A stretch of 64,000 nucleotides of DNA from the NCBI GenBank assembly GCA_964604555.1, contig CAZRZK010000011.1, positions 14,732 through 78,731 on the forward strand, in the 5' to 3' direction. This DNA comes from an uncultured Pseudobdellovibrionaceae bacterium (lineage in GTDB: Bacteria; Bdellovibrionota; FAC87; UBA2466). Every line of letters starts with the position of its first letter. Position 1 is the first letter of the stretch. Shown piece after piece: positions 2,980 to 57,846 of the stretch. A model generated the notes under the pieces. The model ran no database searches. It was not told where the DNA came from and saw only the letters and a list, made by a program, of their open reading frames with translations. Both the position numbers and the translations under genes were made by a program.

Positions 2980-4149
2980 CTATTCCTTAACAGATCCTAG
3001 GGTTCTGCCCTTTAATTCTTTCTGTCCGAGGGCGCAGGCGGTTTTAAGACCAGCAGGTTGAGTCGCGAGCTGACATTTCTCAAGCGTCTCTAAAATAGTC
3101 CCCGTTTCTGGATTCACCTGTTTAGAAATAATCAGGGCTGAGGCGATTCGTACCGGTTCTTCAAGAGCGGCATCCAAAATCCACTTTTGAATCGCTTGAG
3201 TGAGCGCTGGGGTTTTATCTCCACAAACCCCCAAGGCAAGAACCGCTTTTTCCTGAATATCGGTGTCTTCCTTGTCTTCAATGATCGAAAGGAGTCGTTT
3301 GGTAATGGTAGCGCTGGGTCGTTCACTTTGAATCTGGATCAGATCCAAGGTCGTTAACAGGACGTCGGTATCATCACTCTGGATCGTCTTTTCAATCGCA
3401 TTCCAAACACGGGGATCATTTTTAGCCTGGCTTTGCAAGCCGGAAAGGCACAGGAGTGAAAGAGGGGTGTCTTTGCTATCGGAGCATTCAATAAAAAGAG
3501 AAATCAGTTCGGGCTGTCCATTTCCTTTTGCGCTTAAGGCCTCGATGATTCCTTGTTTCAACCGGTCTTTTCCGATGCGTTTATAGGTGGCTAAGAGGGT
3601 CTCTACAAAGTTTTGCGAGCCATCCCCATGTTTTTGAAAATAGGAGGCGAGTGCAGTCGCTTCATCGGCAGAGGAGGTTTCTTTGAGTTTGTTGAGCAGA
3701 GTCTGGTGAATCTCAATTGAACTGCTTCTCCGGGTCTCGAAAGATTTGGCTAGAGGGATCGTCAAGCCGTTGTCACTCCGAAAGGCTTCTAGCATCGCCT
3801 TCTCGATCCAATCGCTTTGGCTCTGGGTGCCGGCCTGTCCCATCGCACGTGCGCAAAGGGTTCGGATCTGGATATTCGAATCTTTAAGGCAGTTCATAAG
3901 GGCTTGGATAACCGCCGGCTGATGAATGGTTTGGGAATATTGGCTCAACTTATAGGCAGCGAGCTTTTTTTCATTTTCGTCGGAACTCTGAGCGAGAGTC
4001 TTGCCCCATAAAACCAGAGGGTGGGTAGGAGGTGGGCCGGTGTAACGTCGTCGTTTTGCTTTTGATTTAGAATGGGCCGATGGCTCCAGCATCAAAAAAG
4101 CCAGAGCCATCAGCAATCCGTAACTGAGATTTGTTTTAATCCAATGCAC
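2980..4149 (-). CDS. secreted HEAT/armadillo-like repeat protein
   Basis: N-terminal signal peptide. Repeated alpha-helical units resemble HEAT repeats (LMNCLKDSNIQIRTLCARAMGQ, EKAVLALGVCGD...). The gene overlaps the upstream subtilase gene by 14 bp, consistent with an operon. Confidence 0.45.
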   Translation of the reverse strand: MHWIKTNLSYGLLMALAFLMLEPSAHSKSKAKRRRYTGPPPTHPLVLWGKTLAQSSDENEKKLAAYKLSQYSQTIHQPAVIQALMNCLKDSNIQIRTLCARAMGQAGTQSQSDWIEKAMLEAFRSDNGLTIPLAKSFETRRSSSIEIHQTLLNKLKETSSADEATALASYFQKHGDGSQNFVETLLATYKRIGKDRLKQGIIEALSAKGNGQPELISLFIECSDSKDTPLSLLCLSGLQSQAKNDPRVWNAIEKTIQSDDTDVLLTTLDLIQIQSERPSATITKRLLSIIEDKEDTDIQEKAVLALGVCGDKTPALTQAIQKWILDAALEEPVRIASALIISKQVNPETGTILETLEKCQLATQPAGLKTACALGQKELKGRTLGSVKE

Positions 4150-5560
4150 GGAGATCTTTTACATTCAAACGCCCCCCGGTGACTACCTTATTTGTGAGTG
4201 CAGAGGTGGTTTTTACATTTTTCAGTACCAGTTCGATGATCTCTTTATAGTTCATGTCACGGTGTTTCGACCAAGCGAGGCCTAACGCACCAGAGACATG
4301 AGGCGCCGCCATCGAGGTGCCATCCCAAGTGGCTTTTAACATATCTCCCATATCAACAATCGTATCTTGGTAACGATTTCCCGGAACGGTGGAGAGCACT
4401 TTCACTCCAGGGGCTCCCAATTTTACCGAGGTCATTCCCCAGTTGGAGAACTCCCCCATGTTTTCCGAGCTGTCGGTGGCAGCAACCGTTAGGATGTTGG
4501 AAAGTTGAATGGCAGCAGGGTAGACCGGTTTGGGATCATTATCGATATCAAACCCAACCGCCTTTCCAGCTGCTTGATTGAGTCGACCATTTCCTGCCGC
4601 TGCAACAAAGATTACGCCCGCTTTTTCGGCCCGTTCTATGGCTTCAATCAGTGGCTTATCATCCTCTTCCCCTTTTTCTCCACCCCAGCTGGCATTGATA
4701 ATATGGGCGCCATTTTCAACGGCATAATCGATCGCCGCAATAGCATCTTCAGTAGTTCCCTGGCCTTTTTCGGTAATAAACCGAAGTGCCATGATTTTAC
4801 ACTTTGGAGCCATGCCGGCGATTCCCTTTCCATTATTCAATCGAGCGCCAATTACCCCGGAGACGTGAGTTCCATGCCCAGGATTTCCACCCGAAAAGAG
4901 GATCTCAAGGAGGCTTAAACTCATGTCGTAGGGCTTGTTGTCATCTCCAGCAAAGTCATAACCTACGATATCATCGACAAACCCATTGCCATCGTTGTCT
5001 TTTCCATCCCCTGCGACCTCCTTAGTGTTGCGCCACATGGCGTTGATGAGATCCTCGTGGGTATAATCGACACCGGAGTCGGTGACGGCAATGATGATGC
5101 CTTCTCCTTGAGAAGTTTTTTGCCAAGCTTGAGGAGCGGCAACAAGATTGACGCCCCATTCCTTAGAAAGCATCGGATCCACTCCTGAGGATTGAATGCC
5201 TGGATTGGGAATTTCTGGATTATCTTTAAATTCCTTAGTTGCTGGCAAAGCATTGGGATTTTGTTTGAGGAAATCGATCAAAGATCTCCGGTGGATTTCC
5301 ACCCCGCTCAACATGGGATGATAGATATGGCTTTTGCTGACATAAGCAATATTGGCGTCGCGTAAGGGGGCCTTCCGAGTTTCAGAAGTCCATTTAAAGA
5401 GGTGGCTCGCTCTGCTGACCTTCTTTAATTCGCCGCCATTTTGTCTTAAGAATCTTTGAATCCCAACTTCTGAATCGTCATTGAGTTTTACCAAAACAGA
5501 ATTAGCCGTGACGTTACCACTCACAAAGGCAAATCCCAAAAGGAATAAAGCGCTTCTCAT
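4136..5560 (-). CDS. secreted subtilisin-like serine protease (peptidase S8)
   Basis: Signal peptide. Catalytic triad motifs occur in D-H-S order: AVTDSGVDYTHEDL, HGTHVSGVIG, GTSMAAPHVSGALGLA. Confidence 0.8.
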   Translation of the reverse strand: MRSALFLLGFAFVSGNVTANSVLVKLNDDSEVGIQRFLRQNGGELKKVSRASHLFKWTSETRKAPLRDANIAYVSKSHIYHPMLSGVEIHRRSLIDFLKQNPNALPATKEFKDNPEIPNPGIQSSGVDPMLSKEWGVNLVAAPQAWQKTSQGEGIIIAVTDSGVDYTHEDLINAMWRNTKEVAGDGKDNDGNGFVDDIVGYDFAGDDNKPYDMSLSLLEILFSGGNPGHGTHVSGVIGARLNNGKGIAGMAPKCKIMALRFITEKGQGTTEDAIAAIDYAVENGAHIINASWGGEKGEEDDKPLIEAIERAEKAGVIFVAAAGNGRLNQAAGKAVGFDIDNDPKPVYPAAIQLSNILTVAATDSSENMGEFSNWGMTSVKLGAPGVKVLSTVPGNRYQDTIVDMGDMLKATWDGTSMAAPHVSGALGLAWSKHRDMNYKEIIELVLKNVKTTSALTNKVVTGGRLNVKDLRALD

Positions 5561-7776: not shown

Positions 7777-8517
7777 ATGGCATTCCACATCAAAGGTTAT
7801 GGCGTAACTGATATAGGACTCAAACGGAAGATCAACCAGGACGCCTTTCTATTGGACGACACGCTCCAGCTTTATGTGGTAGCAGATGGAATGGGAGGGC
7901 ACCGAGGGGGAGAGGTAGCCAGCCAAATGGCAGTGGAAACTCTTCAAAAGTTTTGCCAGGAAAGCAGCTCCCTTTCACCGCAAAACCTCCTTCAACAGGG
8001 GATTAATCTCGCTTGTCAGAAGATCCACGCCGAATCCCAAACCAATGAAGAGCTCAATGGCATGGGCACCACCGTCATCGCCATGCTCTTTGCAAAGGAC
8101 ACCGTCTATATCGGACAGGTGGGAGACAGCCGTGCTTACCTTTTACAAAAAGGGGGCGTGTGGCAGCTGACCGAGGATCATTCTCTCCTTAACGAAGAGA
8201 TTCGGGCGGGAAGACTTTCCGCGGATGAAGCGGAAAATTATAAATTTAAAAATGTGATCACCCGGTCGGTCGGATATGAAGGAAGAGTGACGGTGGATGT
8301 TTACCGTCGGCGCCTCAAAGCTGGGGATCGATTCCTGGCCTGTACCGATGGGCTTTCTGGGTTGGTCACCTCCGATGAAATTCAGAAAATGATCGAAAAA
8401 CATGGTTTAGAAGAAGGACAAAAAAAGCTCATCCAACTCGCCAATGATCGCGGTGGAGATGATAATATTACCCTCGTGACGGTAGAAGTAAAACTTGACC
8501 CTGAGAAGGCAGAGTGA
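7777..8517 (+). CDS. PP2C-family Ser/Thr protein phosphatase
   Basis: PP2C motifs are present: VADGMGGHRGGEVAS, GTTV, DSR, CTDGL, GGDDNITLVTVEV. Confidence 0.8.
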   Translation: MAFHIKGYGVTDIGLKRKINQDAFLLDDTLQLYVVADGMGGHRGGEVASQMAVETLQKFCQESSSLSPQNLLQQGINLACQKIHAESQTNEELNGMGTTVIAMLFAKDTVYIGQVGDSRAYLLQKGGVWQLTEDHSLLNEEIRAGRLSADEAENYKFKNVITRSVGYEGRVTVDVYRRRLKAGDRFLACTDGLSGLVTSDEIQKMIEKHGLEEGQKKLIQLANDRGGDDNITLVTVEVKLDPEKAE

Positions 8518-9503
8518 ATAGTACAGGGATGCCCTTTAAACGGAAATCGAGAGTCCCCAGCAACCACAGCATTACGCTGATGGCGATTCCTGAAAAAAGC
8601 CATCGCGTTCATAAAGTAATCATTCCAGTTCTGTGGCTCAAGGTAGGGGCGGTACTCTTTTCTCTTTTTGCTGTCTTTATTGTGATTGTCGGATTGGAAT
8701 ATGTAACCGCACTCGGGGAAATTTCCGAAAATCAGCGTTTAAAAGGGGAAAACTTCAAACTGCGGCAGGAGATGTTGCAGGTGAAGAACAAGGTGCAGAC
8801 GATGGAAGGCACTCTGGATCGGATGCGAAATTACGCCAAGAAGCTCCAGATTTTGATGGGCCAGACCGAAAAACTCCCCGGGGAACTTCCCCAAGGTCCG
8901 ATGGAGGAGAGCACGCCTTCATTAGATGTTCCAGCAGTGAAAGAAAAGAAAGTGGAGCGAAAACCCACCTCCTTATTAGAACCTATTCCGCAATTGAGAT
9001 TGGTTTCCGATCAATTGGGGAGACTACAGGAAAGCAGCCTTCCCCTTGAAGTCGGATTCGCCAAATTGGAGAATAATTTCTTAGCCAGAAGAAGTTGGTT
9101 AAGGGCAATGCCTTCGATTCTTCCTGTTGCCGGCTGGATTACTTCGGGCTTTGGATATCGAAACCACCCCCAGGAAGGTGGATATCGCCTTCACGCGGGA
9201 GTCGATGTCGCGGCCGATCCGGGCACACCGGTTCGAGCTCCTGCCGATGGCACCGTGCTCTTCTCTGGATACAAAGAAGGTTATGGAAAGTTAGTAATTT
9301 TGAATCATGGCTATGGCATCAGCACCGTCTTTGCGCACAACTCGAAACTTTTTGTGACCGCCTCAACCAAAGTAAAACGCGGAGATATTTTATCCGAAGT
9401 TGGCTCGACCGGAATGTCGACCGGCCCGCACCTGCACTACGAAATTCGAAAAAACGGAGTTCCCGTCAATCCACTTTCTTTTTTCGCCCGCGCCCACTTC
9501 TAG
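8514..9503 (+). CDS. membrane-anchored coiled-coil M23/LytM-family peptidase
   Basis: An N-terminal TM segment and a coiled coil precede the M23 motifs HAGVDVAADPGTPVRAPADGTV...GSTGMSTGPHLHYEI. There is a 4-bp overlap with the upstream PP2C gene. The real start may be an internal Met near 8583. Confidence 0.8.
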   Translation: MNSTGMPFKRKSRVPSNHSITLMAIPEKSHRVHKVIIPVLWLKVGAVLFSLFAVFIVIVGLEYVTALGEISENQRLKGENFKLRQEMLQVKNKVQTMEGTLDRMRNYAKKLQILMGQTEKLPGELPQGPMEESTPSLDVPAVKEKKVERKPTSLLEPIPQLRLVSDQLGRLQESSLPLEVGFAKLENNFLARRSWLRAMPSILPVAGWITSGFGYRNHPQEGGYRLHAGVDVAADPGTPVRAPADGTVLFSGYKEGYGKLVILNHGYGISTVFAHNSKLFVTASTKVKRGDILSEVGSTGMSTGPHLHYEIRKNGVPVNPLSFFARAHF

Positions 9504-10123
9504 GTTTTCCGTCGTTGCGAGCCCCAAAGGGGCGAAGCAATCTTTTTATAGTCTTCAATTGTATCGATATCATTGAGTGTTTCGAGCAGTGCATAGGAAA
9601 TCTGGTGTTCTTTCAACTTTTCCACAGTCTGCTTTGCGACCCCAGAAGTACTCCAGGAAATTCCATCGAACAAAAATGGAAAGAATTTCTTCATCGCAAT
9701 AAGGTAATAGCCACCATCGGCAGCAGGTCCGATCACTACGTCACTGGAATCCAATAATGATTTTGTCTGCTCTAAAATTTTTGGAGTCAGTTCTATACAA
9801 TCAGTTCCAATGGCACATACTTTGGAGCCGGGAAATTTTTCAAAGCCAAATTTCAGACGAGATCCCAGGTCTCCATTGCACTGGGGGAGGTCTTTCGCAT
9901 TCGGTACGGTAAAAAGTTCTCTGTATTCTTCTTTTTGAAACTGAGAGTCCCAGTAATAAAGGATCTGAAATCCTTTGTTACTAATTGGCAGAAGCAATTT
10001 TTCGTTAATCCAATCGACCATCTCATGGTAGATCTGTGCTGCCTTTTCAGCTCCCACCGCTTTTGCGAGGCGGGTTTTCACAAAGCCAGGCTTAGGTGCT
10101 TTGAGAAAAACGATAACGGTCAT
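9500..10123 (-). CDS. DUF2064/TIGR04282-family glycosyltransferase-like protein
   Basis: The N-terminus (TVIVFLKAPKPGFVKTRLA) and the DGGYYLIA motif are typical of the DUF2064 nucleotidyltransferase/glycosyltransferase-like family. Confidence 0.5.
   Translation of the reverse strand: MTVIVFLKAPKPGFVKTRLAKAVGAEKAAQIYHEMVDWINEKLLLPISNKGFQILYYWDSQFQKEEYRELFTVPNAKDLPQCNGDLGSRLKFGFEKFPGSKVCAIGTDCIELTPKILEQTKSLLDSSDVVIGPAADGGYYLIAMKKFFPFLFDGISWSTSGVAKQTVEKLKEHQISYALLETLNDIDTIEDYKKIASPLWGSQRRKT
9511..9542 (+). repeat. REP-like hairpin element (TCGTTGCGAG-GCCCCAAAGGGGC-GAAGCAATC)
   Basis: An outer stem ATTGC/GCAAT and an inner GC stem GCCCC/GGGGC are followed by T-rich sequence. It is a member of a four-locus family in this window. 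It lies at the convergent 3' ends of the M23 peptidase and DUF2064 genes and encodes the last ~13 codons of the latter. Confidence 0.6.
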
Positions 10124-10767
10124 TATTTTTTTACTTTATTCCAGTCATTCAGGAAGGTCTGCAATCCAATGTCGGTCAGTGGGTGTTTGGCGAGTTGCTG
10201 CATTACTTTCAGGGGAAGGGTAACCACATGGGCACCCATCTTTGCCGAATCTAAAACATGGATGGGATGGCGAAGGCTAGCGACCAACACTTCCGTCTTA
10301 AATTCATATTGTTTGAAAATATGGACAATGTCCCTGGCTAATTGAATGCCATCTTGGGAGATGTCATCATGTCGTCCCACAAATGGGCTGACGTAAGCAG
10401 CTCCTGCTTTAGCGGCGAGCAGGGCTTGGATGGGTTGGAAGATGAGGGTGGTGTTGACCGGGATCCCTTCATCGCTCAGGCTTTTGATTGCTTTGAGCCC
10501 TTCCACGGTCATGGGAATTTTGACGACCACGTTGGATCCATATTTTCGGAGGTTTTTTCCCTCGGCGACCATCTCTTTGGCCTCGAGGCTGACTACTTCT
10601 AAACTCACCGGCCCCTTTACAAAGCTGCAGATCTCCTCGGCCACTTGCGCGAAAGGCTTACCTGCCTTGGCGATGAGGCTTGGATTGGTGGTAACCCCAT
10701 CTAATAACCCAAGACTATGGGCCTCTTTAATTTCAGAAATATCTGCCGAATCGATGAAAAAGCGCAT
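10123..10767 (-). CDS. tal: transaldolase / fructose-6-phosphate aldolase (short TalC/Fsa type)
   Basis: 214 aa with the [38 protein letters not shown]-terminus and the Schiff-base lysine region VVKIP. Confidence 0.85.
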
Positions 10768-16497: not shown

Positions 16498-17163
16498 ATG
16501 AAATCCTATTCCATCACACGTCAAGGGAAGCGCTCCGAAAATCAAGATTCCTATTTCTGTGATGATAAGAATGGAATCTACGCCGTTGCCGATGGGGTCG
16601 GCGGTGGCGAGCTCGGAGATGTCGCCTCTCAGCTGGCAATCCAACTTTTTTCGGAAGGGGCGTCTCAGGGGCAACCCTTTGTCGAGGTTTGGGCTAGGAT
16701 TCACGAAGCGGTGACGAAAGCTTCATTCGAAAGGTTTAATGAACCGGTAATGGGCACCACCCTCACCGGGATTTCGATCGAGGGGTCTCAGGTCAAGATT
16801 GGTCATATCGGCGATACGCGTCTCTATGTTTACCAAGAAGGCTTATTGCGTCAGTTGACGCACGATCAAGAATCCTATGATGAACGATCAGGGCATACCG
16901 TACTCATGTCATTTCTCGGAATGGACAGCCGCCACTTTCAGATTGAGATCGTCGAAGACAGCTTCATTTTAGAACCCAAAGATAAGCTTCTTCTGTGCAG
17001 CGACGGTCTTTCCAAGCAGCTCAGCGAGATTACCATGTCTGGAATTATTAAGAGCTATGAAGCGCAACCTCAGCAGTTGGTTGAAATGCTGGCAAATCGA
17101 GCCGAGATCCATGAGCAATCGGATAATGTGACGCTGATTTGGGTGGAGCCTTTTTCAATATAG
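16498..17163 (+). CDS. PP2C-family Ser/Thr phosphatase (second copy)
   Basis: ADGVGGGELGDVAS, GTTL, GDTR, CSDGL and DNVTLIWVE motifs. Confidence 0.75.
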   Translation: MKSYSITRQGKRSENQDSYFCDDKNGIYAVADGVGGGELGDVASQLAIQLFSEGASQGQPFVEVWARIHEAVTKASFERFNEPVMGTTLTGISIEGSQVKIGHIGDTRLYVYQEGLLRQLTHDQESYDERSGHTVLMSFLGMDSRHFQIEIVEDSFILEPKDKLLLCSDGLSKQLSEITMSGIIKSYEAQPQQLVEMLANRAEIHEQSDNVTLIWVEPFSI

Positions 17164-19678
17164 ACCTTACTCCATTTCCAATAATCTGCGCTGCCTGTTT
17201 TGCCTGCTCCGGAGTGTGTGTCGCCATGACTTGCAGGCGGAAGCGGCTTGCTCCTAAAGGGACCACCGGATATTCGATGATCATCGCCGCTAATTGAGCT
17301 TCAGTCATTGCACGGTGGCAGAGTCGCGCCTTCCGTTCTGAACCAATAAACACCGGAACGATAGGCCCCGGAGCTCCGAAGCAGAGTTGCCCCTCCTTCA
17401 TAAGTTCGGACCTTAACACCGTTACTGCAGCGTGAAGTTTTTCCCGTAGAAGCGCCCCTTTCGGAGATCGAATAATCTGGCAGGCCTTGAGGGCGATGGC
17501 CGTCTGAATGGGCGAAAGGGCGTTCGAAAAAAGATGAGCCGAGCTAAACATCTTCAGATAATGGATCAGAGCTTTACTATCGGTAGCGACAAATCCCCCA
17601 TTAGTGGCAAAGCTTTTGGAGAAGCTGCCCATCACAATGTCGATCTTTCCGTACATTCCTTGCACGCCCATTTGGCCTCTTCCTTCAGGACCTGTGGCCC
17701 CTAAGTCATGGGCGACATCGACAAAGAGGAAGGCATTATATTGATGGGCAATCTCCTGAAATTTTTTCAGGTCTGGAGAATCGGCATCCATTGAAAAAAG
17801 TCCTTCAGTAATCAGAAGGATCGCGTTTTTGGTATCCCGTTTGCGAATCGCCCGCAACATGGCTCGAGCAGCATCGGGATCGAGATGAGCGTAGCGGTGG
17901 ACCTTCCGGGTTGCCGCCCTGGCCCCTTGCTGGAGGCAAGCGTGGGTGAGCCGGTCCATCACTATGTGATCCTGGGGTTTTACGATACCAATAATCGATC
18001 CGAAGCCGGCGGCATAGCCTGTCGCAAATAGGAGCACATATTTCTTGCCGGTCAGGATTTTTAATTCTTCCTCCAGTTCATGGGTTAAGAGAGTGTTTCC
18101 GATAATCATCGGGGATCCCGCACTATGGGGACCAAACTTTGAAATTGACTCGATAGCTGCCTGGGCAATTTCGGGATCTTGTCCTAATCCCAGATAATCT
18201 TGGGAAGCGAAATTGATCCCCTCGATCTTTCTTCCCGAATTATCGCTGAGAAGGGTGGTGTTGGCCGCAATTCGATGGAGCGTGCGGGAGTATTGGAACA
18301 TTCCTTTCTGCTCTCGGCGTTGGTAGAAATCATAATAGGGCTGTGTTCGTTCAAAAAGGTCTGGCCCAAAATGTTGGGAGTAGTCGAAACAGTTCTGTTC
18401 AAGGGCAAGATCAGGTGGTTCAGTGCTAAATGGATTTTGATAAACGGAACTAGAGATCCCAATCGGTTCTAAAGGAGTGGTATCGATAAGTCTTTCGAGC
18501 CTCCGCGCTTCAAAAAATTCCCGCACCGGAACCACATCGAAATAGAGCCCGATAAAACGATTCCGCTCTTCAGAAGAGTTAGAAATCGCTCGATAGAGCC
18601 TTTTTTCATCCGGTCGGAGCGGATTCATCTCCGCTTGTTGAGTCGTGAATTCATAAAAACGGAAGAGGTCCACTGAACGACGGTCTTCGAAGTCTCTAAT
18701 GGCCTCTCCCTTCAATTTTTTTCCACCAAAGAAATTTTGCAGCTCTTCAGAAAGGAGGAAGGCATCTCGCAGTGCATGGGTCATTCCATTGGCCGTACAC
18801 TGATCTTTAAAGCAATGAGCATCACCGATGAGCGGTGCCTGTGGCGAGCTTTTTCGAATAAAGGGCTGCTGATCTACCGTCAACCGAAACGGTTCTACTC
18901 TGCAAGCAGAAGAGACCATCTTACGATGGAATTCAGGATCAATGATTTGGAGTGCTTTGAAGAAATGAAATTCCTTTTCCCTTTTAAAGTCCTCATAAAA
19001 AGAGTCGGGACCAAAGACCAGTACCATTGTGTTCCCATCATTGGTCGGAACAGCCGCAAAGCTCAGTCGATTTCTCTTTTTTAAGAGCGCATGCGGGAGT
19101 TCAAGCCCCTTGAAATAAGAATAGCAGGCAAAGGTGCAGTGGTGGCGTTCTTCCATCTTTGAAACTTGGAAGTGTTCCGCAACGGTGGAGTTTTTACCAT
19201 CGGCTCCGACACAAATCTCGGTTCCCTCTAGGAGTTCTTCGGTAAAAGGAGTTCCCAAGCGAAGCTCAGCCCCTGATTTTACCGCCTCTTCCTGGAGCAA
19301 TTTATCTAAAAAGGCACGGCGGATGCAGGTGTATCGGGGATCCAATTTAAAAATTTCATTCGGGTGAACTGTTTCAAAGCGTCGTTGGAGATCATTTTCA
19401 GAGAGCGAGCCACCCAGGGCAATTTCATCCACACTCACCTCAAAATGGTGGAAAGCAGGGGTTTCCTTTAATACCGCTTCCGCAATTCCCAGAGAATGGA
19501 GATAGGTGAGCCCACGCGCATTCATAAAGTGGGTTGAAAGCACATCGTGCGTCTCATTCATTTTATCGACAAGGAGAACTTTTAACCCCGCCCTGGCAAG
19601 TCGGATGGCGGTGGCCGATCCGGCAATTCTGGCCCCAATGATAGTAACATCATACTGTTTCATAAAACCCCTTCCCAT
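17048..19678 (-). CDS. fusion protein: N-terminal FAD-dependent oxidoreductase domain + C-terminal alpha-oxoamine synthase (AONS/SPT/KBL/CqsA family, PLP)
   Basis: The N-terminus has the GxGxxG dinucleotide fold (DVTIIGARIAGSATAIRLARAGLKVLLVDK). The C-terminal ~400 aa has the class II aminotransferase pattern with PLP lysine GSFSKSF, DVAHDLG and DYLGLG. About 120 aa of linker separate the two domains. Confidence 0.7.
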   Translation of the reverse strand: MGRGFMKQYDVTIIGARIAGSATAIRLARAGLKVLLVDKMNETHDVLSTHFMNARGLTYLHSLGIAEAVLKETPAFHHFEVSVDEIALGGSLSENDLQRRFETVHPNEIFKLDPRYTCIRRAFLDKLLQEEAVKSGAELRLGTPFTEELLEGTEICVGADGKNSTVAEHFQVSKMEERHHCTFACYSYFKGLELPHALLKKRNRLSFAAVPTNDGNTMVLVFGPDSFYEDFKREKEFHFFKALQIIDPEFHRKMVSSACRVEPFRLTVDQQPFIRKSSPQAPLIGDAHCFKDQCTANGMTHALRDAFLLSEELQNFFGGKKLKGEAIRDFEDRRSVDLFRFYEFTTQQAEMNPLRPDEKRLYRAISNSSEERNRFIGLYFDVVPVREFFEARRLERLIDTTPLEPIGISSSVYQNPFSTEPPDLALEQNCFDYSQHFGPDLFERTQPYYDFYQRREQKGMFQYSRTLHRIAANTTLLSDNSGRKIEGINFASQDYLGLGQDPEIAQAAIESISKFGPHSAGSPMIIGNTLLTHELEEELKILTGKKYVLLFATGYAAGFGSIIGIVKPQDHIVMDRLTHACLQQGARAATRKVHRYAHLDPDAARAMLRAIRKRDTKNAILLITEGLFSMDADSPDLKKFQEIAHQYNAFLFVDVAHDLGATGPEGRGQMGVQGMYGKIDIVMGSFSKSFATNGGFVATDSKALIHYLKMFSSAHLFSNALSPIQTAIALKACQIIRSPKGALLREKLHAAVTVLRSELMKEGQLCFGAPGPIVPVFIGSERKARLCHRAMTEAQLAAMIIEYPVVPLGASRFRLQVMATHTPEQAKQAAQIIGNGVRSILKKAPPKSASHYPIAHGSRLDLPAFQPTAEVALHSS

Positions 19679-19679
19679 T

Positions 19680-19791
19680 GCTTCGCTGAAAAAGTGTCAT
19701 CTGCTTCGTCATCGATGATTTTCACAAAGGTACGGCCTACCTTTGTGAAAATCATCTTGGTTCCTCGCATTTGGCACTTTTTCAGCGAAGC
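19680..19791. promoter_or_regulatory. nested perfect palindromes in the divergent promoter region between the FAD-AONS gene and lysR
   Basis: An outer 17-bp inverted repeat gcttcgctgaaaaagtg/cactttttcagcgaagc encloses an inner 19-bp inverted repeat gatgattttcacaaaggta/tacctttgtgaaaatcatc with a 5-nt loop. Confidence 0.5.
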
Positions 19792-19864
19792 ACCATCTAA
19801 TTACTCATTCATAGATGATGGAATTGGTTTCTAAAAGTCCTTTATGGTAAATGTTTGGTTAGCA

Positions 19865-23104: not shown

Positions 23105-23140
23105 CCGTCATTGCGAGGAGCCCGAAGGGCGACGCGGCAA
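23105..23140 (+). repeat. REP-like hairpin element copy (GTCATTGCGAGGAGCCCGAAGGGCGACGCGGCAA)
   Basis: Same family as the 9511 element. It sits immediately after the cyclophilin stop, at convergent gene ends. Confidence 0.55.
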
Positions 23141-23141
23141 A

Positions 23142-23444
23142 CTACTCCGGCAAATGCGCAAGGTGAGAAGGCTTTTCAACGTTGAACTTCTTGGTGAGTT
23201 CAAAAAGCCCTTTTTCATTTTCGGCTACAAGCTCGAGTGAAGTTGAAATCCACTGCCAGGCCGTTCCATTTTTCTGGGTAAAGAAAGCATATTGGGCGTA
23301 ACGCTCCGCGCTAAATGGCACGCGGATGAATCGCCTCGCATTCTCTCCAGCGGAGCCCAACTGCTCTTCCAGATTTGGGATAAGAGATTGAATATCTGTA
23401 AGTTTTTCAGGTGAAGAACGACGGATAATGTAGCGCATTGCCAT
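23142..23444 (-). CDS. hypothetical protein
   Basis: 100-aa ORF with no recognisable motifs. It fills the gap between the REP element and the divergent promoter. Confidence 0.3.
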   Translation of the reverse strand: MAMRYIIRRSSPEKLTDIQSLIPNLEEQLGSAGENARRFIRVPFSAERYAQYAFFTQKNGTAWQWISTSLELVAENEKGLFELTKKFNVEKPSHLAHLPE

Positions 23445-27718: not shown

Positions 27719-27823
27719 CAAGTGGCTAAAGAATACACACCCAACCGATTCTAACTAGCTGAAAATACAAACAGAATACTGGCCTTTGGCTTGCAGTTGT
27801 ATACTGGTATGGCCATCCCAACT

Positions 27824-27947
27824 GTCATTACGAAAGTCTTGTCATTGCGAGGAGCGAAGCGACCGCCACGCAGCGCTCGCGGCAGGCTCCGCAATCCCGT
27901 CGGCGCGACACCGTCATTGCGAGCCCTGAAAGGGCGAAGCAATCTCC
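27824..27947 (+). repeat. cluster of tandem, degenerate REP-like units upstream of the HExxH protein gene
   Basis: Successive units are gtcattacgaaagtc, GTCATTGCGAGGAGCGAAGCGACCGCCACGCAGCGCTCGCGGCAGGCTCCGCAATC and GTCATTGCGAGCCCTGAAAGGGCGAAGCAATCTCC. The apparent N-terminal extension of the 27791 ORF is read through these repeats. Confidence 0.6.
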
Positions 27948-27955
27948 TTGTGCTC

Positions 27956-29854
27956 ATGCTTATTCTGTCCCTCACTACCCCCAACCTCTACGCCGTCGGC
28001 ACTAACGGTCCAAAACCGATGGAAGATCTCACAGCCAATCGTTTATTGAATGGGGCAATAAAAAAGCGAAAGGCAACTAAGAAGAAATCGGGAAATGGAA
28101 ATGAAGGGGGCTCAGGAGCATTGTCATTAGGCGGCGGAGCCAAAAATTCTGGCTCTGGTGACGGGAATGGAGATCCTGACTCCGATTACAGTACAGCAGT
28201 GGGCGGATTAGAGTTTGGGAAAAAAGGCGGCTCTGGAAAATCCGCAGGAAAGAGTTCCAAAAAAACCGGCGCGAGAATTGGTTATAAAGGGGATACCGAT
28301 CCCGAAACTTTAAGCGGCCCTAGCGATGACCATGATCACGATCATGGCGGTGGAGGGGGAGGATCAGGTCCCCCGGCACCTCCTTCGCCGCCTCAAATCT
28401 TACCTTACTTTCTGCCTCTGTGTTTCTTTTTCGATACAGAATACACAGAGGAAGTTGCCCGTAAAATTGTTAAGGATGTCGTCGACATCTACGCTGCCTG
28501 TGATGTAGCTGTTGATGCGCATACATTTACCTTACGTCCTGGGACCTACCCCCAGCATGATCCTGATAAGTTAAATGAGAACTCCCGGTTTCACTGTAAC
28601 TTCAAAGTGCATTATGTAGATAATAGTCTATATGGAGCGGGACAAAGTTTTCCAAACTCGTTACGTGCCTCAGATAAGATGTGTCCAGAAGGATGGGAGG
28701 AAAAAGTAAGACGAGTTAATGAAGGAGAAGCTGAAAAAGATGTGATGACAACAGCAGGCTGCGCTGGAATGCCAGGAGATGCTTCTATTGTCGATTTCAT
28801 GGGAAGCGGGGGTGTTTCTGCTCATGAATTCGGCCATAATATTGGCCGGCCCGGTCGCGGAGGCGATTACCTCGAAAACGAGGGAGAGGGGAATAAAGTA
28901 CGTACGAAAGCAGGGTTGGGGCTTCAACTCAAAAATAGCCCAGTCAATGATAAGGAAAAAGCTGTTCATCATGATGAAGGAACACATCATGCTGGAGGGT
29001 TTACTGGTCCGGGTTGCGCTTCGATTCAAGGCGGTGCAAACGATAACTCCGTACGAAAAATTCCTTATATCAAAAATGCATTGGAATCTTATTATACGAA
29101 GGCTACGACCACTGAGGAAATGATCGATTATAATGGGCGAAATCAGCCGGCGCTTCCGACAGGAAATACTCCAGACCCGGTGGTGACCGAACGACGTCCG
29201 CCCGCTCCACCCGCCTTTGTTAGTAACAATATGTTCGGCGAAGGCTCATCGGGCACTCCTCAATCTGGTGCTGGGCCTGGCGGCCACCCTGGCGTCCCAG
29301 CTAGCAATGGAAAAAGCGGCGGCGGTTTTTCAGGCGGTGTGAGTTCCCCCGTTCCTCCCATTCCAATCGCCAGCAATGGCATCGGAGGAGGGAGTAATTT
29401 AAGTGGGGATCTTCCTGCTCCTCCACCAGAAGGGCCTCAGTCTGAGGTCGCAGGAGAGGCGGGTTCACAACCCAATTCGGCCAATCCACCTCAAGCAAAA
29501 GGAAACCGTTTCATCTACATGAATGATGGATCCACGGTCAGTGGCACCGCTGCCGATGCCTTATTGGGCAAAGCAGGGGTCGGTGGAGGCGGGCTTCCGC
29601 TAGCGGCAGAAGGTGCAAATGGAGAAGGTGGAAAATCGGGGGGCTCCAGTGCGATTGGAGGTTTAGAGAGTAGCGCTGCGGGAGGGACTCGCATCGTTGC
29701 AAACGCCAATGAAGGGGATCCGAGTAATCCCGATTTTGATAAACGAAAAAAGGGTGGAAAAAAGAAGAAACGCCGCCGTCCCATCATGCGGACCACCGAC
29801 CCCTCTACCCTCTATCAAAGTGCGGGCGAAGCTCCAGCCTCCACAAACGAGTAA
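27956..29854 (+). CDS. secreted Gly-rich protein with HExxH motif (putative zinc metallopeptidase)
   Basis: Short signal peptide (MLILSLTTPNLYA), long Gly-rich low-complexity stretches, HEFGHNIG, and a DHDHDHGGGGGG/PPAPPSPP linker. The start was moved to 27956 to exclude repeat-derived codons. Confidence 0.45.
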   Translation: MLILSLTTPNLYAVGTNGPKPMEDLTANRLLNGAIKKRKATKKKSGNGNEGGSGALSLGGGAKNSGSGDGNGDPDSDYSTAVGGLEFGKKGGSGKSAGKSSKKTGARIGYKGDTDPETLSGPSDDHDHDHGGGGGGSGPPAPPSPPQILPYFLPLCFFFDTEYTEEVARKIVKDVVDIYAACDVAVDAHTFTLRPGTYPQHDPDKLNENSRFHCNFKVHYVDNSLYGAGQSFPNSLRASDKMCPEGWEEKVRRVNEGEAEKDVMTTAGCAGMPGDASIVDFMGSGGVSAHEFGHNIGRPGRGGDYLENEGEGNKVRTKAGLGLQLKNSPVNDKEKAVHHDEGTHHAGGFTGPGCASIQGGANDNSVRKIPYIKNALESYYTKATTTEEMIDYNGRNQPALPTGNTPDPVVTERRPPAPPAFVSNNMFGEGSSGTPQSGAGPGGHPGVPASNGKSGGGFSGGVSSPVPPIPIASNGIGGGSNLSGDLPAPPPEGPQSEVAGEAGSQPNSANPPQAKGNRFIYMNDGSTVSGTAADALLGKAGVGGGGLPLAAEGANGEGGKSGGSSAIGGLESSAAGGTRIVANANEGDPSNPDFDKRKKGGKKKKRRRPIMRTTDPSTLYQSAGEAPASTNE

Positions 29855-41116: not shown

Positions 41117-41140
41117 AAAGAGAGTTTTTTCTCATAACGA

Positions 41141-41632
41141 TTGATGAAGCCAAAAAACCTCATCTTGCTTTCAGTCAGCGGCTTCATTGTCAGCATCGAT
41201 CAAGCGGTAAAAAGTTACGTCCTGAATGCCCTGGCCCTTGGGGATTCTAAAAATCTCCTGGGAAGTTTTCTCAAGCTTGTTCACCATAAAAGCAATGGCC
41301 CCATTTTCCGTTTCATCCAAAGTATTCCGGCTGACTTTCAAGATATTTTTTTGGTTGCCGTTCCCGTGGTGGCGTTGGTTCTTTTAATCCTTATCTTCTT
41401 GAAGATCGATGATGGGGGGTTTGTCTCTTCTGCCTCACTAATGCTGATTTTGTCTGGAGCCCTCGCGAACCTGCTGGATCGACTCCAGCATGATTTTGTG
41501 ATCGATTGCATTGTGGTTGCCGATTACTGGTCCTTCAATCTAGCCGATGTCAGTATTTTAGCGGGTACACTGCTCATGATCACAAACACCTTGCTCCAAC
41601 ACCAAAAGAAACTCAGAATAGAGAAAAAATGA
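41141..41632 (+). CDS. lipoprotein signal peptidase II paralog (divergent LspA-like)
   Basis: 4-TM protein with LspA-like motifs (SNGPIFRF, WSFNLADVSI, ANLLDRLQHDFVIDC) that retain both catalytic Asp positions. Confidence 0.5.
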   Translation: MMKPKNLILLSVSGFIVSIDQAVKSYVLNALALGDSKNLLGSFLKLVHHKSNGPIFRFIQSIPADFQDIFLVAVPVVALVLLILIFLKIDDGGFVSSASLMLILSGALANLLDRLQHDFVIDCIVVADYWSFNLADVSILAGTLLMITNTLLQHQKKLRIEKK

Positions 41633-42141
41633 TGAGTGTTAACCGTTGGAAAATCTATTTTTTAGCTGGAATTGGGCTCTCTGTCTTGGTGCTGGATCAG
41701 ATTACCAAATACTGGATCTACTCCCGTTTTCATTGGGGTGAAAGCGTGGTGGTGATCCCTAATTTCTTTGCCATTACCTATGTCCGTAACATGGGGGCCG
41801 CCTTTGGATTTCTTCACCGAGCCCCTGAGTGGTTCCGTACCCCATTCTTTCTGGTGGTGCCGCTTATTATTTTGGCGGTTTTGAGCGGAATGTTTATTAA
41901 GTTGAAACCAGAACAGAAATGGATGGGGGCAGCAATCTCCTTGATCATTTCCGGAGCCATTGGAAATATCATCGATCGGGCCCGTTTTGGTTATGTAGTG
42001 GATTTCTTAGATTTCCATTATAAAGAGGTTTATCATTGGCCCGCCTTCAATGTGGCCGATTCCAGTATTGTAGTAGGAGTTTGCCTGATTTTCTTAATCT
42101 CCTGGTTTGAAAAGAAACCATCCCCCTCTCCTATTGGCTAA
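41629..42141 (+). CDS. lspA: lipoprotein signal peptidase II
   Basis: Canonical motifs VRNMGAAFGFL, GNIIDRARFGYVVDF and WPAFNVADS. Its ATG overlaps the stop of the upstream paralog (ATGATGA). Confidence 0.8.
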   Translation: MMSVNRWKIYFLAGIGLSVLVLDQITKYWIYSRFHWGESVVVIPNFFAITYVRNMGAAFGFLHRAPEWFRTPFFLVVPLIILAVLSGMFIKLKPEQKWMGAAISLIISGAIGNIIDRARFGYVVDFLDFHYKEVYHWPAFNVADSSIVVGVCLIFLISWFEKKPSPSPIG

Positions 42142-56467: not shown

Positions 56468-56891
56468 AGATGTGGAACATTTGGGATTAGCCGGCACCGT
56501 GGTGAATGTGAAGGATGGATTTGCGAGAAACTATCTTTTGCCACGTAGCTTTGCCGTTCCGGCAACAGGGAACAACATCAAGGCTTTCGAACATGAGCAG
56601 CGTCTCGCTGAATCGAAGCGGGAAAAGCGGATTAAAGAGGCTGAAGGGCTGAAAGTGAAGCTTGAAAAGGTTTCTATCTCCATCTCTAAAAAGGTGGGCG
56701 AGCAGGACAAGCTTTTTGGTTCTGTGACAACTCAAGAGATTGAAAAGGCTTTTGCCGCAGAAGGGTTCAATGTTGATAAGAAGGATATCCTTCTCCCTGA
56801 GCCGATTAAAACTCTGGGCGTCTTTACCGTGCCCATTCGCGTTTTAGAAGATGTGGTCGCGAACACCAAAGTTTGGGTCGTTAAAGAATAA
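56448..56891 (+). CDS. rplI: 50S ribosomal protein L9
   Basis: MKVILREDVEHLGLAGTVVNVKDGFARNYLLP N-domain and a C-terminal domain. Confidence 0.85.
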   Translation: MKVILREDVEHLGLAGTVVNVKDGFARNYLLPRSFAVPATGNNIKAFEHEQRLAESKREKRIKEAEGLKVKLEKVSISISKKVGEQDKLFGSVTTQEIEKAFAAEGFNVDKKDILLPEPIKTLGVFTVPIRVLEDVVANTKVWVVKE

Positions 56892-56892
56892 G

Positions 56893-56958
56893 GTAGCTTC
56901 GCCCGGCTCCGCCGGGCGCAATGAAAGGTTGCTTCGGCCTTCGGCCTCGCAATGACGG
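56893..56958 (-). repeat. two tandem REP-like hairpin units (reverse orientation) after rplI
   Basis: Reverse complement reads GCCGTCATTGCGAGGCCGAAGGCCGAAGCAACC + TTTCATTGCGCCCGGCGGAGCCGGGCGAAGCTAC. They sit between convergent gene ends. Confidence 0.55.
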
Positions 56959-57846
56959 CTATTGATCTGCCCTTTGCGTGACAGGGAATAAATAAAGGCC
57001 AGCAAAGAAAACGTCATCGCTGTTGCTGTCTAGGCCATATTTGCGGTTGAGCTTTTTCCGAAACTCTCGGATTTCCTCTTTAATCTCCTTTAACCGAGAC
57101 TGCGGAATCGCTAAAACCAAACCGGACATCTCACGCCGCTCGTTGGCCACCCCAAAAATGGAATGGATCGCCTTTCGGAGGTAGGTCCGGTGCAAACTCC
57201 GAATTACATGGGGAGGGATCTCCTCTGAACTGGTGAGAAGAGGTTCCTTTTGTTCCAGAACTCCTGATTCATTTCGTTTCAAGAAGTGAAGACGAAGCAA
57301 TAACTCCAAACTTTCCTTAGCTTGAGCTTCAGTAATCTTATTTCCAAGCCGTTTCGCAATCCATTGGGGATCTTCCCTAAAATCACCACAGTTGACGAGC
57401 TCTTTGACCACGGCATGATGCCAATCGAGCATGAACTTAATCCGATCGGCTTTAACAGGGGTCGGAGTCCTTTGTTTTTCCTGGTATTTCAATAAGGAAC
57501 GCAGGTGCAATTCCTTGCTGTCGGGATCGGACACCTCTTGGTACATTACCAGTTCTCGAAAATACTTCTCTTCATCTCGGCTTAAACCCAAACCTCGGGC
57601 AAACTGATAAAGGGTTCGGTCGGTAATGCGGCGTTTTCCATCGACCACTAATTTTAAATAATTAGGAGAACCGAGCTTTGCTTTCCGGGCAAAAAGCCGG
57701 TAGCTGTAGGAGGCATTACGGCGTTTGTGAAAGAGGTAGTAATCGTGCAGGTATTCGCGGTAATCGAAATAGTCAAAAAGATTGGGAATGGGGACACCCT
57801 TTCCCTGGGACTCCTTCACTGGATGAGCTTTTGTCATATCCCCCAT
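56959..57846 (-). CDS. hypothetical protein with N-terminal HTH-like region (TIGR02147-like)
   Basis: 295 aa. The N-terminal region YSYRLFARKAKLGSPNYLKLVVDGKRRITDRTLYQFARGLGLS looks like an HTH. Family assignment is from memory only. Confidence 0.3.
   Translation of the reverse strand: MGDMTKAHPVKESQGKGVPIPNLFDYFDYREYLHDYYLFHKRRNASYSYRLFARKAKLGSPNYLKLVVDGKRRITDRTLYQFARGLGLSRDEEKYFRELVMYQEVSDPDSKELHLRSLLKYQEKQRTPTPVKADRIKFMLDWHHAVVKELVNCGDFREDPQWIAKRLGNKITEAQAKESLELLLRLHFLKRNESGVLEQKEPLLTSSEEIPPHVIRSLHRTYLRKAIHSIFGVANERREMSGLVLAIPQSRLKEIKEEIREFRKKLNRKYGLDSNSDDVFFAGLYLFPVTQRADQ

Follow-up and report, generated by a model that had tools for sequence, protein, structure and literature searches.

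How does a protein-coding gene come to end inside a hairpin that recurs elsewhere on the same chromosome? The question is raised by a 64,000-nucleotide stretch of contig CAZRZK010000011.1 from an uncultured Pseudobdellovibrionaceae bacterium (the window hereafter), in which the last codons of a minus-strand gene for a DUF2064 / TIGR04282-like glycosyltransferase coincide with a short palindrome. The first-pass annotation of this DNA had described a dispersed family of hairpins resembling repetitive extragenic palindromic (REP) sequences, with variants of one motif at four loci. Both claims hold, the first through the window copies together with copies in other genomes, the second at all four loci with refined coordinates. 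We consider the element to be, probably, a small palindromic repeat of the REP type that is neither coding nor autonomous, and whose anatomy places it among the CGTC-tagged REPs. The frame shared by the four loci consists of (C/T)C-GTC-ATTGC-GAG, a variable GC hairpin and (C)GAA-GCAAT-C, and it is represented by six full copies and one partial copy:

9509-9542, plus strand: copy A, CCGTCGTTGCGAGCCCCAAAGGGGCGAAGCAATC, with a CC-GTC tag, a GTTGC/GCAAT outer stem, a GA/GAA internal loop and an inner GCCCC-AAA-GGGGC hairpin
23105-23142, plus strand: copy B, CCGTC-ATTGC-GAG-GA-GCCC-GAA-GGGC-GAC-GCG-GCAAAC
27823-27833, plus strand: C0, a partial copy with the left arm only, TGTCATTACGA
27840-27897, plus strand: copy C1, with a TGTC tag, a GCGAAGC mini-hairpin core followed by a 27-nt extra segment, and the right arm GCTCC-GCAAT-CC
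27911-27944, plus strand: copy C2, CCGTC-ATTGC-GA-GCCCT-GAA-AGGGC-GAA-GCAAT-C
56927-56958, minus strand: copy D1, CCGTC-ATTGC-GA-GGCC-GAA-GGCC-GAA-GCAAC-C
56892-56926, minus strand: copy D2, TTTC-ATTGC-G-CCCGGC-GGA-GCCGGG-C-GAA-GCTAC, both arms degenerate, head-to-tail with D1

Copy A reads GTCGTTGCGAG, with a G at position 5 after the tag where an A is usual, and this G for A puts a G.T wobble in the outer stem; the string given for it earlier as TCATTGCGAG is TCGTTGCGAG at this copy. The right arm of copy B is degenerate (GCAAAC). Judged by the stem opening that was tested, one arm has decayed in B and D1, and D2 is likewise affected; ATTGC...GCAAT is intact in C1 and C2. Could so short a likeness be due to chance or to local GC-rich low complexity? 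The motifs are indeed short, and two of the copies (B and D2) have degenerate arms. Against this, the exact 9-mer CATTGCGAG occurs four times where simple arithmetic on 128 kb of two-strand sequence predicts about 0.5 occurrences, and the pattern ATTGCG-N4-34-GAAGC, of whose eight matches in the window four are the elements themselves, is expected only 1.3 times; none of 100 shuffles reached eight. An unbiased repeat search also returned A and C2 as a 35-nt direct repeat with 89% identity, and the same flanks are found in hundreds of copies from other genomes. Coincidence is thus scarcely credible.

The structure of the unit is a hairpin within a hairpin. Copies A, C2, D1 and D2 are predicted, both as RNA and as DNA, to fold into an outer stem of 4-5 bp, a GA/GAA internal loop and an inner GC stem closed by a 3-nt loop, the predicted energies ranging from -6 to -17 kcal/mol; the predicted folds of B and C1 are less clean. 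It had been claimed earlier that the inner stem varies from copy to copy with its pairing preserved, and this is what the window stems show, each differing from the others yet being self-complementary (GCCCC/GGGGC, GCCC/GGGC, GCCCT/AGGGC, GGCC/GGCC and CCCGGC/GCCGGG). The same is true in other genomes, where a perfect inner stem of at least 4 bp is present in 47% of 173 distinct copies whose inner segment measures 10 nt or more, as opposed to 19% after shuffling. Longer inner segments found elsewhere are hairpins of unrelated sequence. The inner stem runs from 2 to 8 bp and the outer stem is 5 bp long. Triloops close 130 of the 228 scored copies, 57% of them with the sequence GNA, and GCGNAGC, derived from the commonest inner segment, is the commonest core among the external copies. 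Rare double changes in the outer stem keep its pairing (ACTGC/GCAGT, ATCGC/GCGAT and ATTAC/GTAAT), and ATTGC itself is retained in 316 of the 325 copies with complementary outer arms. The purine internal loop, with GA opposite GAA, can form sheared G.A pairs. Its reading as a kink-turn or loop-E motif was dropped: a kink-turn needs strand lengths of 5 and 2, and those of the loop are 2 and 3 nt. In the shortest units GCGNAGC makes up the core, a classic DNA mini-hairpin of very high stability: d(GCGNAGC) has a melting temperature of 76.5 C, and its DNA form is more stable than its RNA form (PMC13037366).

The first-pass annotation had made its reading depend on there being further copies elsewhere, and these were found in hundreds of contigs, which is decisive. 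IMG/VR was searched with the frame GTCATTGCGAG-N3-33-GAAGCAA and GTDB with the same frame plus the CGTC tag. The 20-base frame is present in at least 120 IMG/VR contigs and its CGTC-tagged form in at least 120 GTDB genome stretches, which by their record titles belong to about ten phyla. Among the GTDB matches listed are Alphaproteobacteria (Bradyrhizobium, sphingomonads, Rhodospirillales, Rickettsiales and Micavibrio), Gammaproteobacteria (Solimonas, Legionellales and Lysobacterales), Bacteroidota (Pedobacter, Mucilaginibacter, Tannerella and Rikenella), as well as Ignavibacteriaceae, Patescibacteria, Melainabacteria, Planctomycetota, Sporomusa, Haliangium, Armatimonadota and Zixibacteria. 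With BLAST, the shortest form was located on plasmids and chromids of Novosphingobium, Methylobacterium, Methylosinus, Legionella and three cyanobacteria, and one Novosphingobium replicon has it in at least 40 places. Many of the IMG/VR contigs that contain the element (L001, L004, L005, L006, L008, L019, L040 and others) share a single head-morphogenesis module consisting of the portal gene and its neighbours. Rather than diverse phages, these "viral" contigs may represent prophages related to one another, or gene-transfer-agent-like clusters, in hosts rich in the element.

From the IMG/VR and GTDB loci 434 copies were gathered, and these form the basis of the family statistics. GTC is preceded by C in 71% of them and by T in 26%, the flank consensus is YC-GTC...GCAATC-CAG, and the positions after GCAAT read C-C/T-A-G. 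Adjacent copies are mostly inverted, this being the case in 36 of 45 pairs; 32 of the 45 have a plus-then-minus arrangement, with spacers mostly of 20-28 nt. With respect to genes, convergent spacers are enriched (27% against a background of 18%) and divergent ones are depleted (10% against 14%).

To which of the known repeat families does the element belong? REPs with a CGTC tag were described by Di Nocera, De Gregorio & Rocco (2013, BMC Genomics 14:522; PMC3733652). They are characterized in that paper by a CGTC tag with TGTC and CCTC variants, a stem that opens with an A-T and a T-A pair, a CCA tail, the formation of dimers, a location 3' of genes, intragenic copies, and the lack of a transposase. 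In the window, the tag is CCGTC in A, B, C2 and D1, TGTC in C1 and a degenerate TTTC in D2, and the stem opens as ATTGC...GCAAT in C1 and C2 and as GTTGC, with its G.T wobble, in A. The family consensus C-C/T-A-G fits the CCA tail at the 3' end, and GCAATCCAG in Novosphingobium is an example of it; the window copies have C-T/C and not the full CCA. Also in common with the published repeats are, outside the window, inverted dimers with spacers of 20-100 nt, and further a downstream and convergent location (in the window, three of the spacers are convergent and one is co-directional), occasional in-frame intragenic copies, and the absence of an adjacent transposase. The hosts overlap as well, both sets including Bradyrhizobium, sphingomonads, Micavibrio, Bacteroidota and relatives of Chlorobi. 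However, the range found here, about ten phyla together with phage contigs, is wider than the five phyla reported there (PMC3733652). The closest of the published families by sequence is CGTC-3 of Rhodopseudomonas/Bradyrhizobium, the sole family that has ATTGC/GCAAT ends by the peptides listed; its peptide VIAGLDPAIH, back-translated by us, gives GTCATTGCCGGGCTTGACCCGGCAATCC.

Several observations weigh against this assignment, or against a mobile repeat altogether. The published CGTC families are described as having a continuous stem of 8-9 bp and a loop of 4-5 nt (PMC3733652), but the stem and loop of the element are not of this form: its outer stem has 5 bp, a GA/GAA loop follows, and the inner stem, free in both sequence and length, is mostly closed by GNA loops of 3 nt. 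The ATTGCGAG...GAAGCAAT frame has no counterpart among the REP-encoded peptides given for CGTC-1 to CGTC-4. Single copies reach only modest folding z-scores (-0.5 to -3), and the window has singletons and head-to-tail pairs (C1-C2 and D1-D2) only, with no inverted dimers, in contrast to a published superfamily of mainly inverted dimers in which head-to-tail pairs are negligible. Neither a target-site rule nor an empty-site alignment at nucleotide resolution was obtained. Finally, Pfam scans found no transposase, HUH or integrase domain in the roughly 50 open reading frames (ORFs) of the window, and no transposase family enriched among 138 ORFs that flank the element in 120 GTDB loci. Di Nocera et al. 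found no dedicated enzyme for the CGTC REPs either (PMC3733652). Because of the differing stem and loop and the unlisted peptides, we file the element as a variant of this kind and assign it to none of the four named families. The authors of that study noted that bulged elements may have escaped their search (PMC3733652). No description of the element was found in the literature by DNA strings or by peptide footprints, and the REP/RAYT papers do not list its sequence.

Other repeats can be compared as well. The GTAG REPs and REPINs associated with RAYT in E. coli, Pseudomonas and Stenotrophomonas are likewise short palindromes with an unpaired conserved tag at one end, high in copy number and extragenic, forming REPIN-like inverted dimers and proposed to be mobilized in trans as single-stranded hairpins. 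Unlike these, the element is tagged with CGTC and not GTAG, its stem is interrupted by purine mismatches, and no RAYT or other Y1 transposase was found beside its copies here or in the literature; nor does the window contain a Y1_Tnp domain or any other transposase domain. Small palindromic repeats that insert in frame and add peptides to proteins, as copy A may have done in the DUF2064 gene and as is seen in a phage portal gene (below), are also known as the Rickettsia palindromic elements RPE-4 and RPE-6, classed as CGTC-4, and as the Neisseria dRS3 repeats, classed as CGTC-1, by Di Nocera et al. (PMC3733652). They share the CGTC-ATT...AAT-CC frame, but differ in stem sequence (e.g., ATTCCCGC in CGTC-1) and in host, RPEs being restricted to Rickettsia and dRS3 to Neisseria where the frame of the element extends through many phyla. 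In the subterminal hairpins of IS200/IS605 and the d(GCGNAGC) mini-hairpins of single-stranded DNA origins, imperfect hairpins are again read on single-stranded DNA, and the inner hairpin of most copies of the element has the motif known from there, a GCGNAGC / CCGAAGG core containing a sheared G.A pair. Here, though, there is no transposase gene, no pair of ends enclosing cargo, and no evidence of an origin or priming function.

The location of the copies invites a different explanation. Loci A, B and D lie in spacers between convergent genes and fill each of them exactly, and locus C lies between co-directional genes. Copy B makes up the whole 37-nt spacer between a cyclophilin gene (plus strand, stop codon 23102-23104) and a 100-residue ORF (minus strand, stop codon 23142-23144). 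D1 and D2 fill the 67-nt spacer between the L9 and DUF4423 genes, D1 abutting the DUF4423 stop codon at 56959-56961 and D2 the L9 stop codon at 56889-56891. C0, C1 and C2 are found between an LptF/G gene and a gene for a 632-residue protein with no Pfam match (ATG at 27956). Copy A is situated between two convergent genes:

8514-9503, plus strand: M23 peptidase gene, stop codon 9501-9503, 5 nt upstream of the CCGTC tag of copy A
9500-10123, minus strand: DUF2064 / TIGR04282-like glycosyltransferase ORF, stop codon 9500-9502

Three of the four loci thus abut stop codons, as had been noted before, and each of the four has at least one gene upstream of it. Together with the stable RNA folds, with the CTTTTTAT that follows copy A on the M23 strand, and with the stabilization of upstream mRNA by E. 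coli REPs summarized in Di Nocera et al. (PMC3733652), this location would suit host terminators or mRNA 3'-end stabilizers that evolved for that role, the frame being kept by selection on RNA function and not by mobility. The first-pass annotation had in fact thought three of the four copies probable terminators or mRNA stabilizers. A GC-rich hairpin just past stop codons, followed in copy A by a T-run, does resemble an intrinsic terminator, but as a general property of the family termination was not borne out. Consensus terminator scans called none of the elements, and copy A alone in the window has a T-run after its outer stem (CTTTTTAT). In the family at large at least five T in the next 8-9 nt, on either strand, are found in only 7% of the copies. 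Singletons between co-directional genes show no more than a weak orientation bias, with 37 co-oriented and 24 anti-oriented to transcription. Conserved flanks, occurrence in both orientations and copies inside genes further set the family apart from intrinsic terminators, many copies are inverted dimers or lie inside ORFs, and at one orthologous junction (described below) the element is present in one genome and absent from others. Nor would an identical 20-base frame in about ten phyla and in phage contigs be expected from independent selection for a hairpin. We therefore regard a dedicated terminator or stabilizer role as unlikely. Once transcribed, the hairpin may affect mRNA 3' ends, most plausibly at copy A with its T-run, but this is not a property of the family.

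The conserved sequence and hairpin, and the position of some copies upstream of genes (as at locus C), might equally suggest a family of structured non-coding RNAs, whether small RNAs or cis-regulatory motifs. This is highly improbable given that the units are only 30-35 nt long, that they occur in both orientations, as inverted dimers and in coding regions, and that Rfam gave no match in the window at gathering scores; permissive scans returned only hits at chance level, with E of about 1-9.

If the element is instead a repeat of the REP type, sites should exist that differ in its presence, and the region around the Lon gene offers one. The best named Lon homologues have 73-79% identity to that of the window and belong to metagenome-assembled genomes of Deltaproteobacteria, Bdellovibrionales and Oligoflexia, which makes a Bdellovibrionota-like source probable, and the relatives keep the gene order ftsK-csp-rho-lspA-lspA-tig-clpP-clpX-lon. 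In one of them (L245, 79% Lon identity), an inverted dimer lies at 4924-5009, within a 104-nt spacer between the rho stop codon and the lspA start. The same spacer has 24 nt in the window (41117-41140) and 42 nt in a second relative (L246, 4954-4995), with no element in either. The orthologous rho-lspA junction offers a clear instance of an element gained or lost. A third relative (L244) has a degenerate dimer elsewhere. The L9/DUF4423 junction was not recovered in the relatives, synteny around Lon being held upstream (ftsK to lon) and not downstream. A second line of evidence comes from the phage-like contig L040, on which a head-to-head dimer at 4711-4779 is located inside an SPP1-type portal gene (3846-5330, minus strand) and leaves its ORF open. 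It amounts to an in-frame insertion of 19 residues (RNDSPFVSLRGAEHRSNLV) that is missing from five homologues, one of them 85% identical. Both the presence/absence at rho-lspA and the portal insertion support mobility, so far as can be judged from comparing sequences.

With this in mind, we can return to the DUF2064 gene. Its last 13 codons (IASPLWGSQRRKT) cover copy A, 11 of them coming from the element and two from the flank; approximately 13 codons had been attributed to the element before. The codons at 9509-9541 encode IASPLWGSQRR, preceded by K, and the flank contributes KT and the stop codon. The palindrome CTAG at 9500-9503 provides the stop codons of both the M23 peptidase gene and the DUF2064 gene, so that the two genes overlap by 4 nt. 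Since copy A has no stop codon in the DUF2064 frame, the ORF continues to this shared CTAG and acquires an 11-residue tail encoded by the element. In an alignment of 30 homologues, the conserved part of the family ends with a DIDT.ED motif, after which an unconserved tail of 4-25 residues follows, and the tail found here (YKKIASPLWGSQRRKT) is within this normal length. The exact protein was found only on this contig. The next homologues are 41-46% identical, and the nearest of them are encoded in non-syntenic radical-SAM/methyltransferase clusters of the arsenosugar type (L247 and L248), while the gene discussed here adjoins a transaldolase gene (9500-10767); they consequently provide no orthologous empty site for comparison. 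When the element was excised in silico, a long read-through into the antisense of the M23 gene resulted, and thus the ancestral C-terminus cannot be reconstructed. It is plausible, on these sequence comparisons, that an insertion remodelled the C-terminus of the protein, a reading for which the in-frame dimer of the phage portal gene is a precedent within the family. The read-through of copy A is a known kind of event and not a new system. For annotation, it is relevant that the last 11 residues of the DUF2064 protein are derived from a repeat.

A similar caution applies to locus C. If the gene at 27956-29854 is given its longest ORF, the reading frame begins at a TTG at 27791 and continues across C1 and C2 (..SLRGAKRPPRSARGRLRNPVGATPSLRALKGRSNL..). 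The N-terminal extension from 27791 is probably spurious, the likely start being the ATG at 27956 or the GTG at 27950, and its 55 repeat-derived residues should not be read as protein features.

How might such a unit move? The layout in which an unpaired tag stands beside a hairpin is that recognized by HUH tyrosine transposases, with RAYT acting on REPs and TnpA on the ends of IS200/IS605. In single-stranded DNA the GCGNAGC and CCGAAGG cores, and the C-GA-G / C-GAA-G loops, are known for an unusual stability that exceeds their stability in RNA (PMC13037366). This layout and this stability favour mobilization in trans as a single-stranded DNA hairpin, a proposal that remains tentative and that we hold at clearly less than even because neither the window, nor the flanks of 120 genomic loci, nor the literature yielded an enzyme. 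The unit in question would comprise the unpaired (C/T)CGTC tag, the conserved 5-bp ATTGC/GCAAT stem, the purine internal loop and an inner hairpin of free sequence, usually with a GNA triloop. It would spread as the folded single-stranded hairpin, the tag and the conserved stem being recognized by a trans-acting enzyme. REP/RAYT and IS200/IS605 suggest, purely by analogy, that this enzyme would most likely be a tyrosine transposase of the HUH type with its gene elsewhere in the genome. Copies would settle, or would persist only, at sites where the damage is small, mainly just beyond stop codons and in convergent spacers. There, the hairpin would be transcribed into the 3' ends of neighbouring mRNAs, where it may slow 3' exonucleases or help termination as a by-product. 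Copy A would be one such convergent-spacer copy, without a stop codon in the DUF2064 frame and hence read through.

No candidate emerged from the genes around the copies. ORFs between inverted copies in the IMG/VR loci are phage structural genes or genes of unknown function, and an all-against-all clustering of 5704 ORFs returned only shared phage modules and common paralogues.

The retention of ATTGC in nearly all complementary outer stems suggests recognition by a protein, and it can be asked whether the element is chiefly a DNA target or binding site with spread being secondary, for instance a landing pad for a site-specific recombinase, an IS110-type insertion sequence or a phage, or a nucleoid or gyrase site. 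The outer stem and tag are indeed conserved in sequence and do not covary freely, and the element is present in phage contigs. In Neisseria, the dRS3 repeats serve as landing pads for Nf phages. These repeats are the CGTC-1 family of that genus according to Di Nocera et al. (PMC3733652). On the other hand, no integrase, recombinase or insertion sequence adjoins any of the window copies, none is enriched in the 120 GTDB loci, and the origin of hundreds of copies is left unexplained. A binding site as the primary nature of the element is accordingly distinctly unlikely.

Returning to the REP-type repeat, the assignment appears, from sequence, to be correct: this is a known kind of element in a structurally variant form, very widespread, and with no formal description found in the literature. 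To our knowledge, CGTC-type repeats are a large class of REPs for which no mobilizing enzyme is known. A bolder view, which we consider doubtful, is that the ATTGCGAG...GAAGCAAT element may constitute an undescribed pan-bacterial branch of the CGTC repeats, with an invariant 20-base frame and a hypervariable inner hairpin, crossing phyla possibly on phages or gene-transfer-agent-like particles and mobilized on single-stranded DNA by an enzyme yet to be named. If true, the exact and countable frame could link the CGTC repeats to their missing transposase by phylogenetic profiling. Its exactness, the many phyla, the phage contigs and the gain and loss make the frame a convenient marker for a co-occurrence search for the enzyme. 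The main practical value therefore lies in this marker for the enzyme of CGTC repeats and in the annotation of repeat-derived peptide tails, and the element is also a natural case of short repeats that add peptide segments to proteins. Assemblies, moreover, appear to break at these repeats. Contig L243 from Logan (run SRR16481182), an independent assembly of the same organism, ends at 56890 inside the L9 stop codon, 2 nt before D2, as would be expected at a repeat.

The window itself is an ordinary chromosomal region. By Pfam, its roughly 50 ORFs include genes for SerRS, NAD kinase, the M23 peptidase, transaldolase, ABC transporters, cyclophilin, LptF/G, FtsK, Rho, LspA (twice), trigger factor, ClpP, ClpX, Lon and S6-SSB-S18-L9. 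The two LspA (signal peptidase II, Peptidase_A8) genes are in tandem at 41141-41632 and 41506-42141, their ORFs overlapping as called; the pair is also present in three relatives (L244, L245 and L246), which means that the duplication is old. Two large ORFs have no Pfam match, one at 27956-29854 (632 residues, rich in glycine, serine and proline) and the other at 57960-60911 (983 residues). Unusually, an 876-residue protein encoded at 17048-19678 on the minus strand has a FAD-binding monooxygenase-like domain in its N-terminal part and a class I/II aminotransferase domain in its C-terminal part. Between its gene and a divergent gene for a LysR-type regulator there is a 26-nt inverted repeat (19679-19704 / 19767-19792, 88% complementary, 62 nt apart), which may be an operator.

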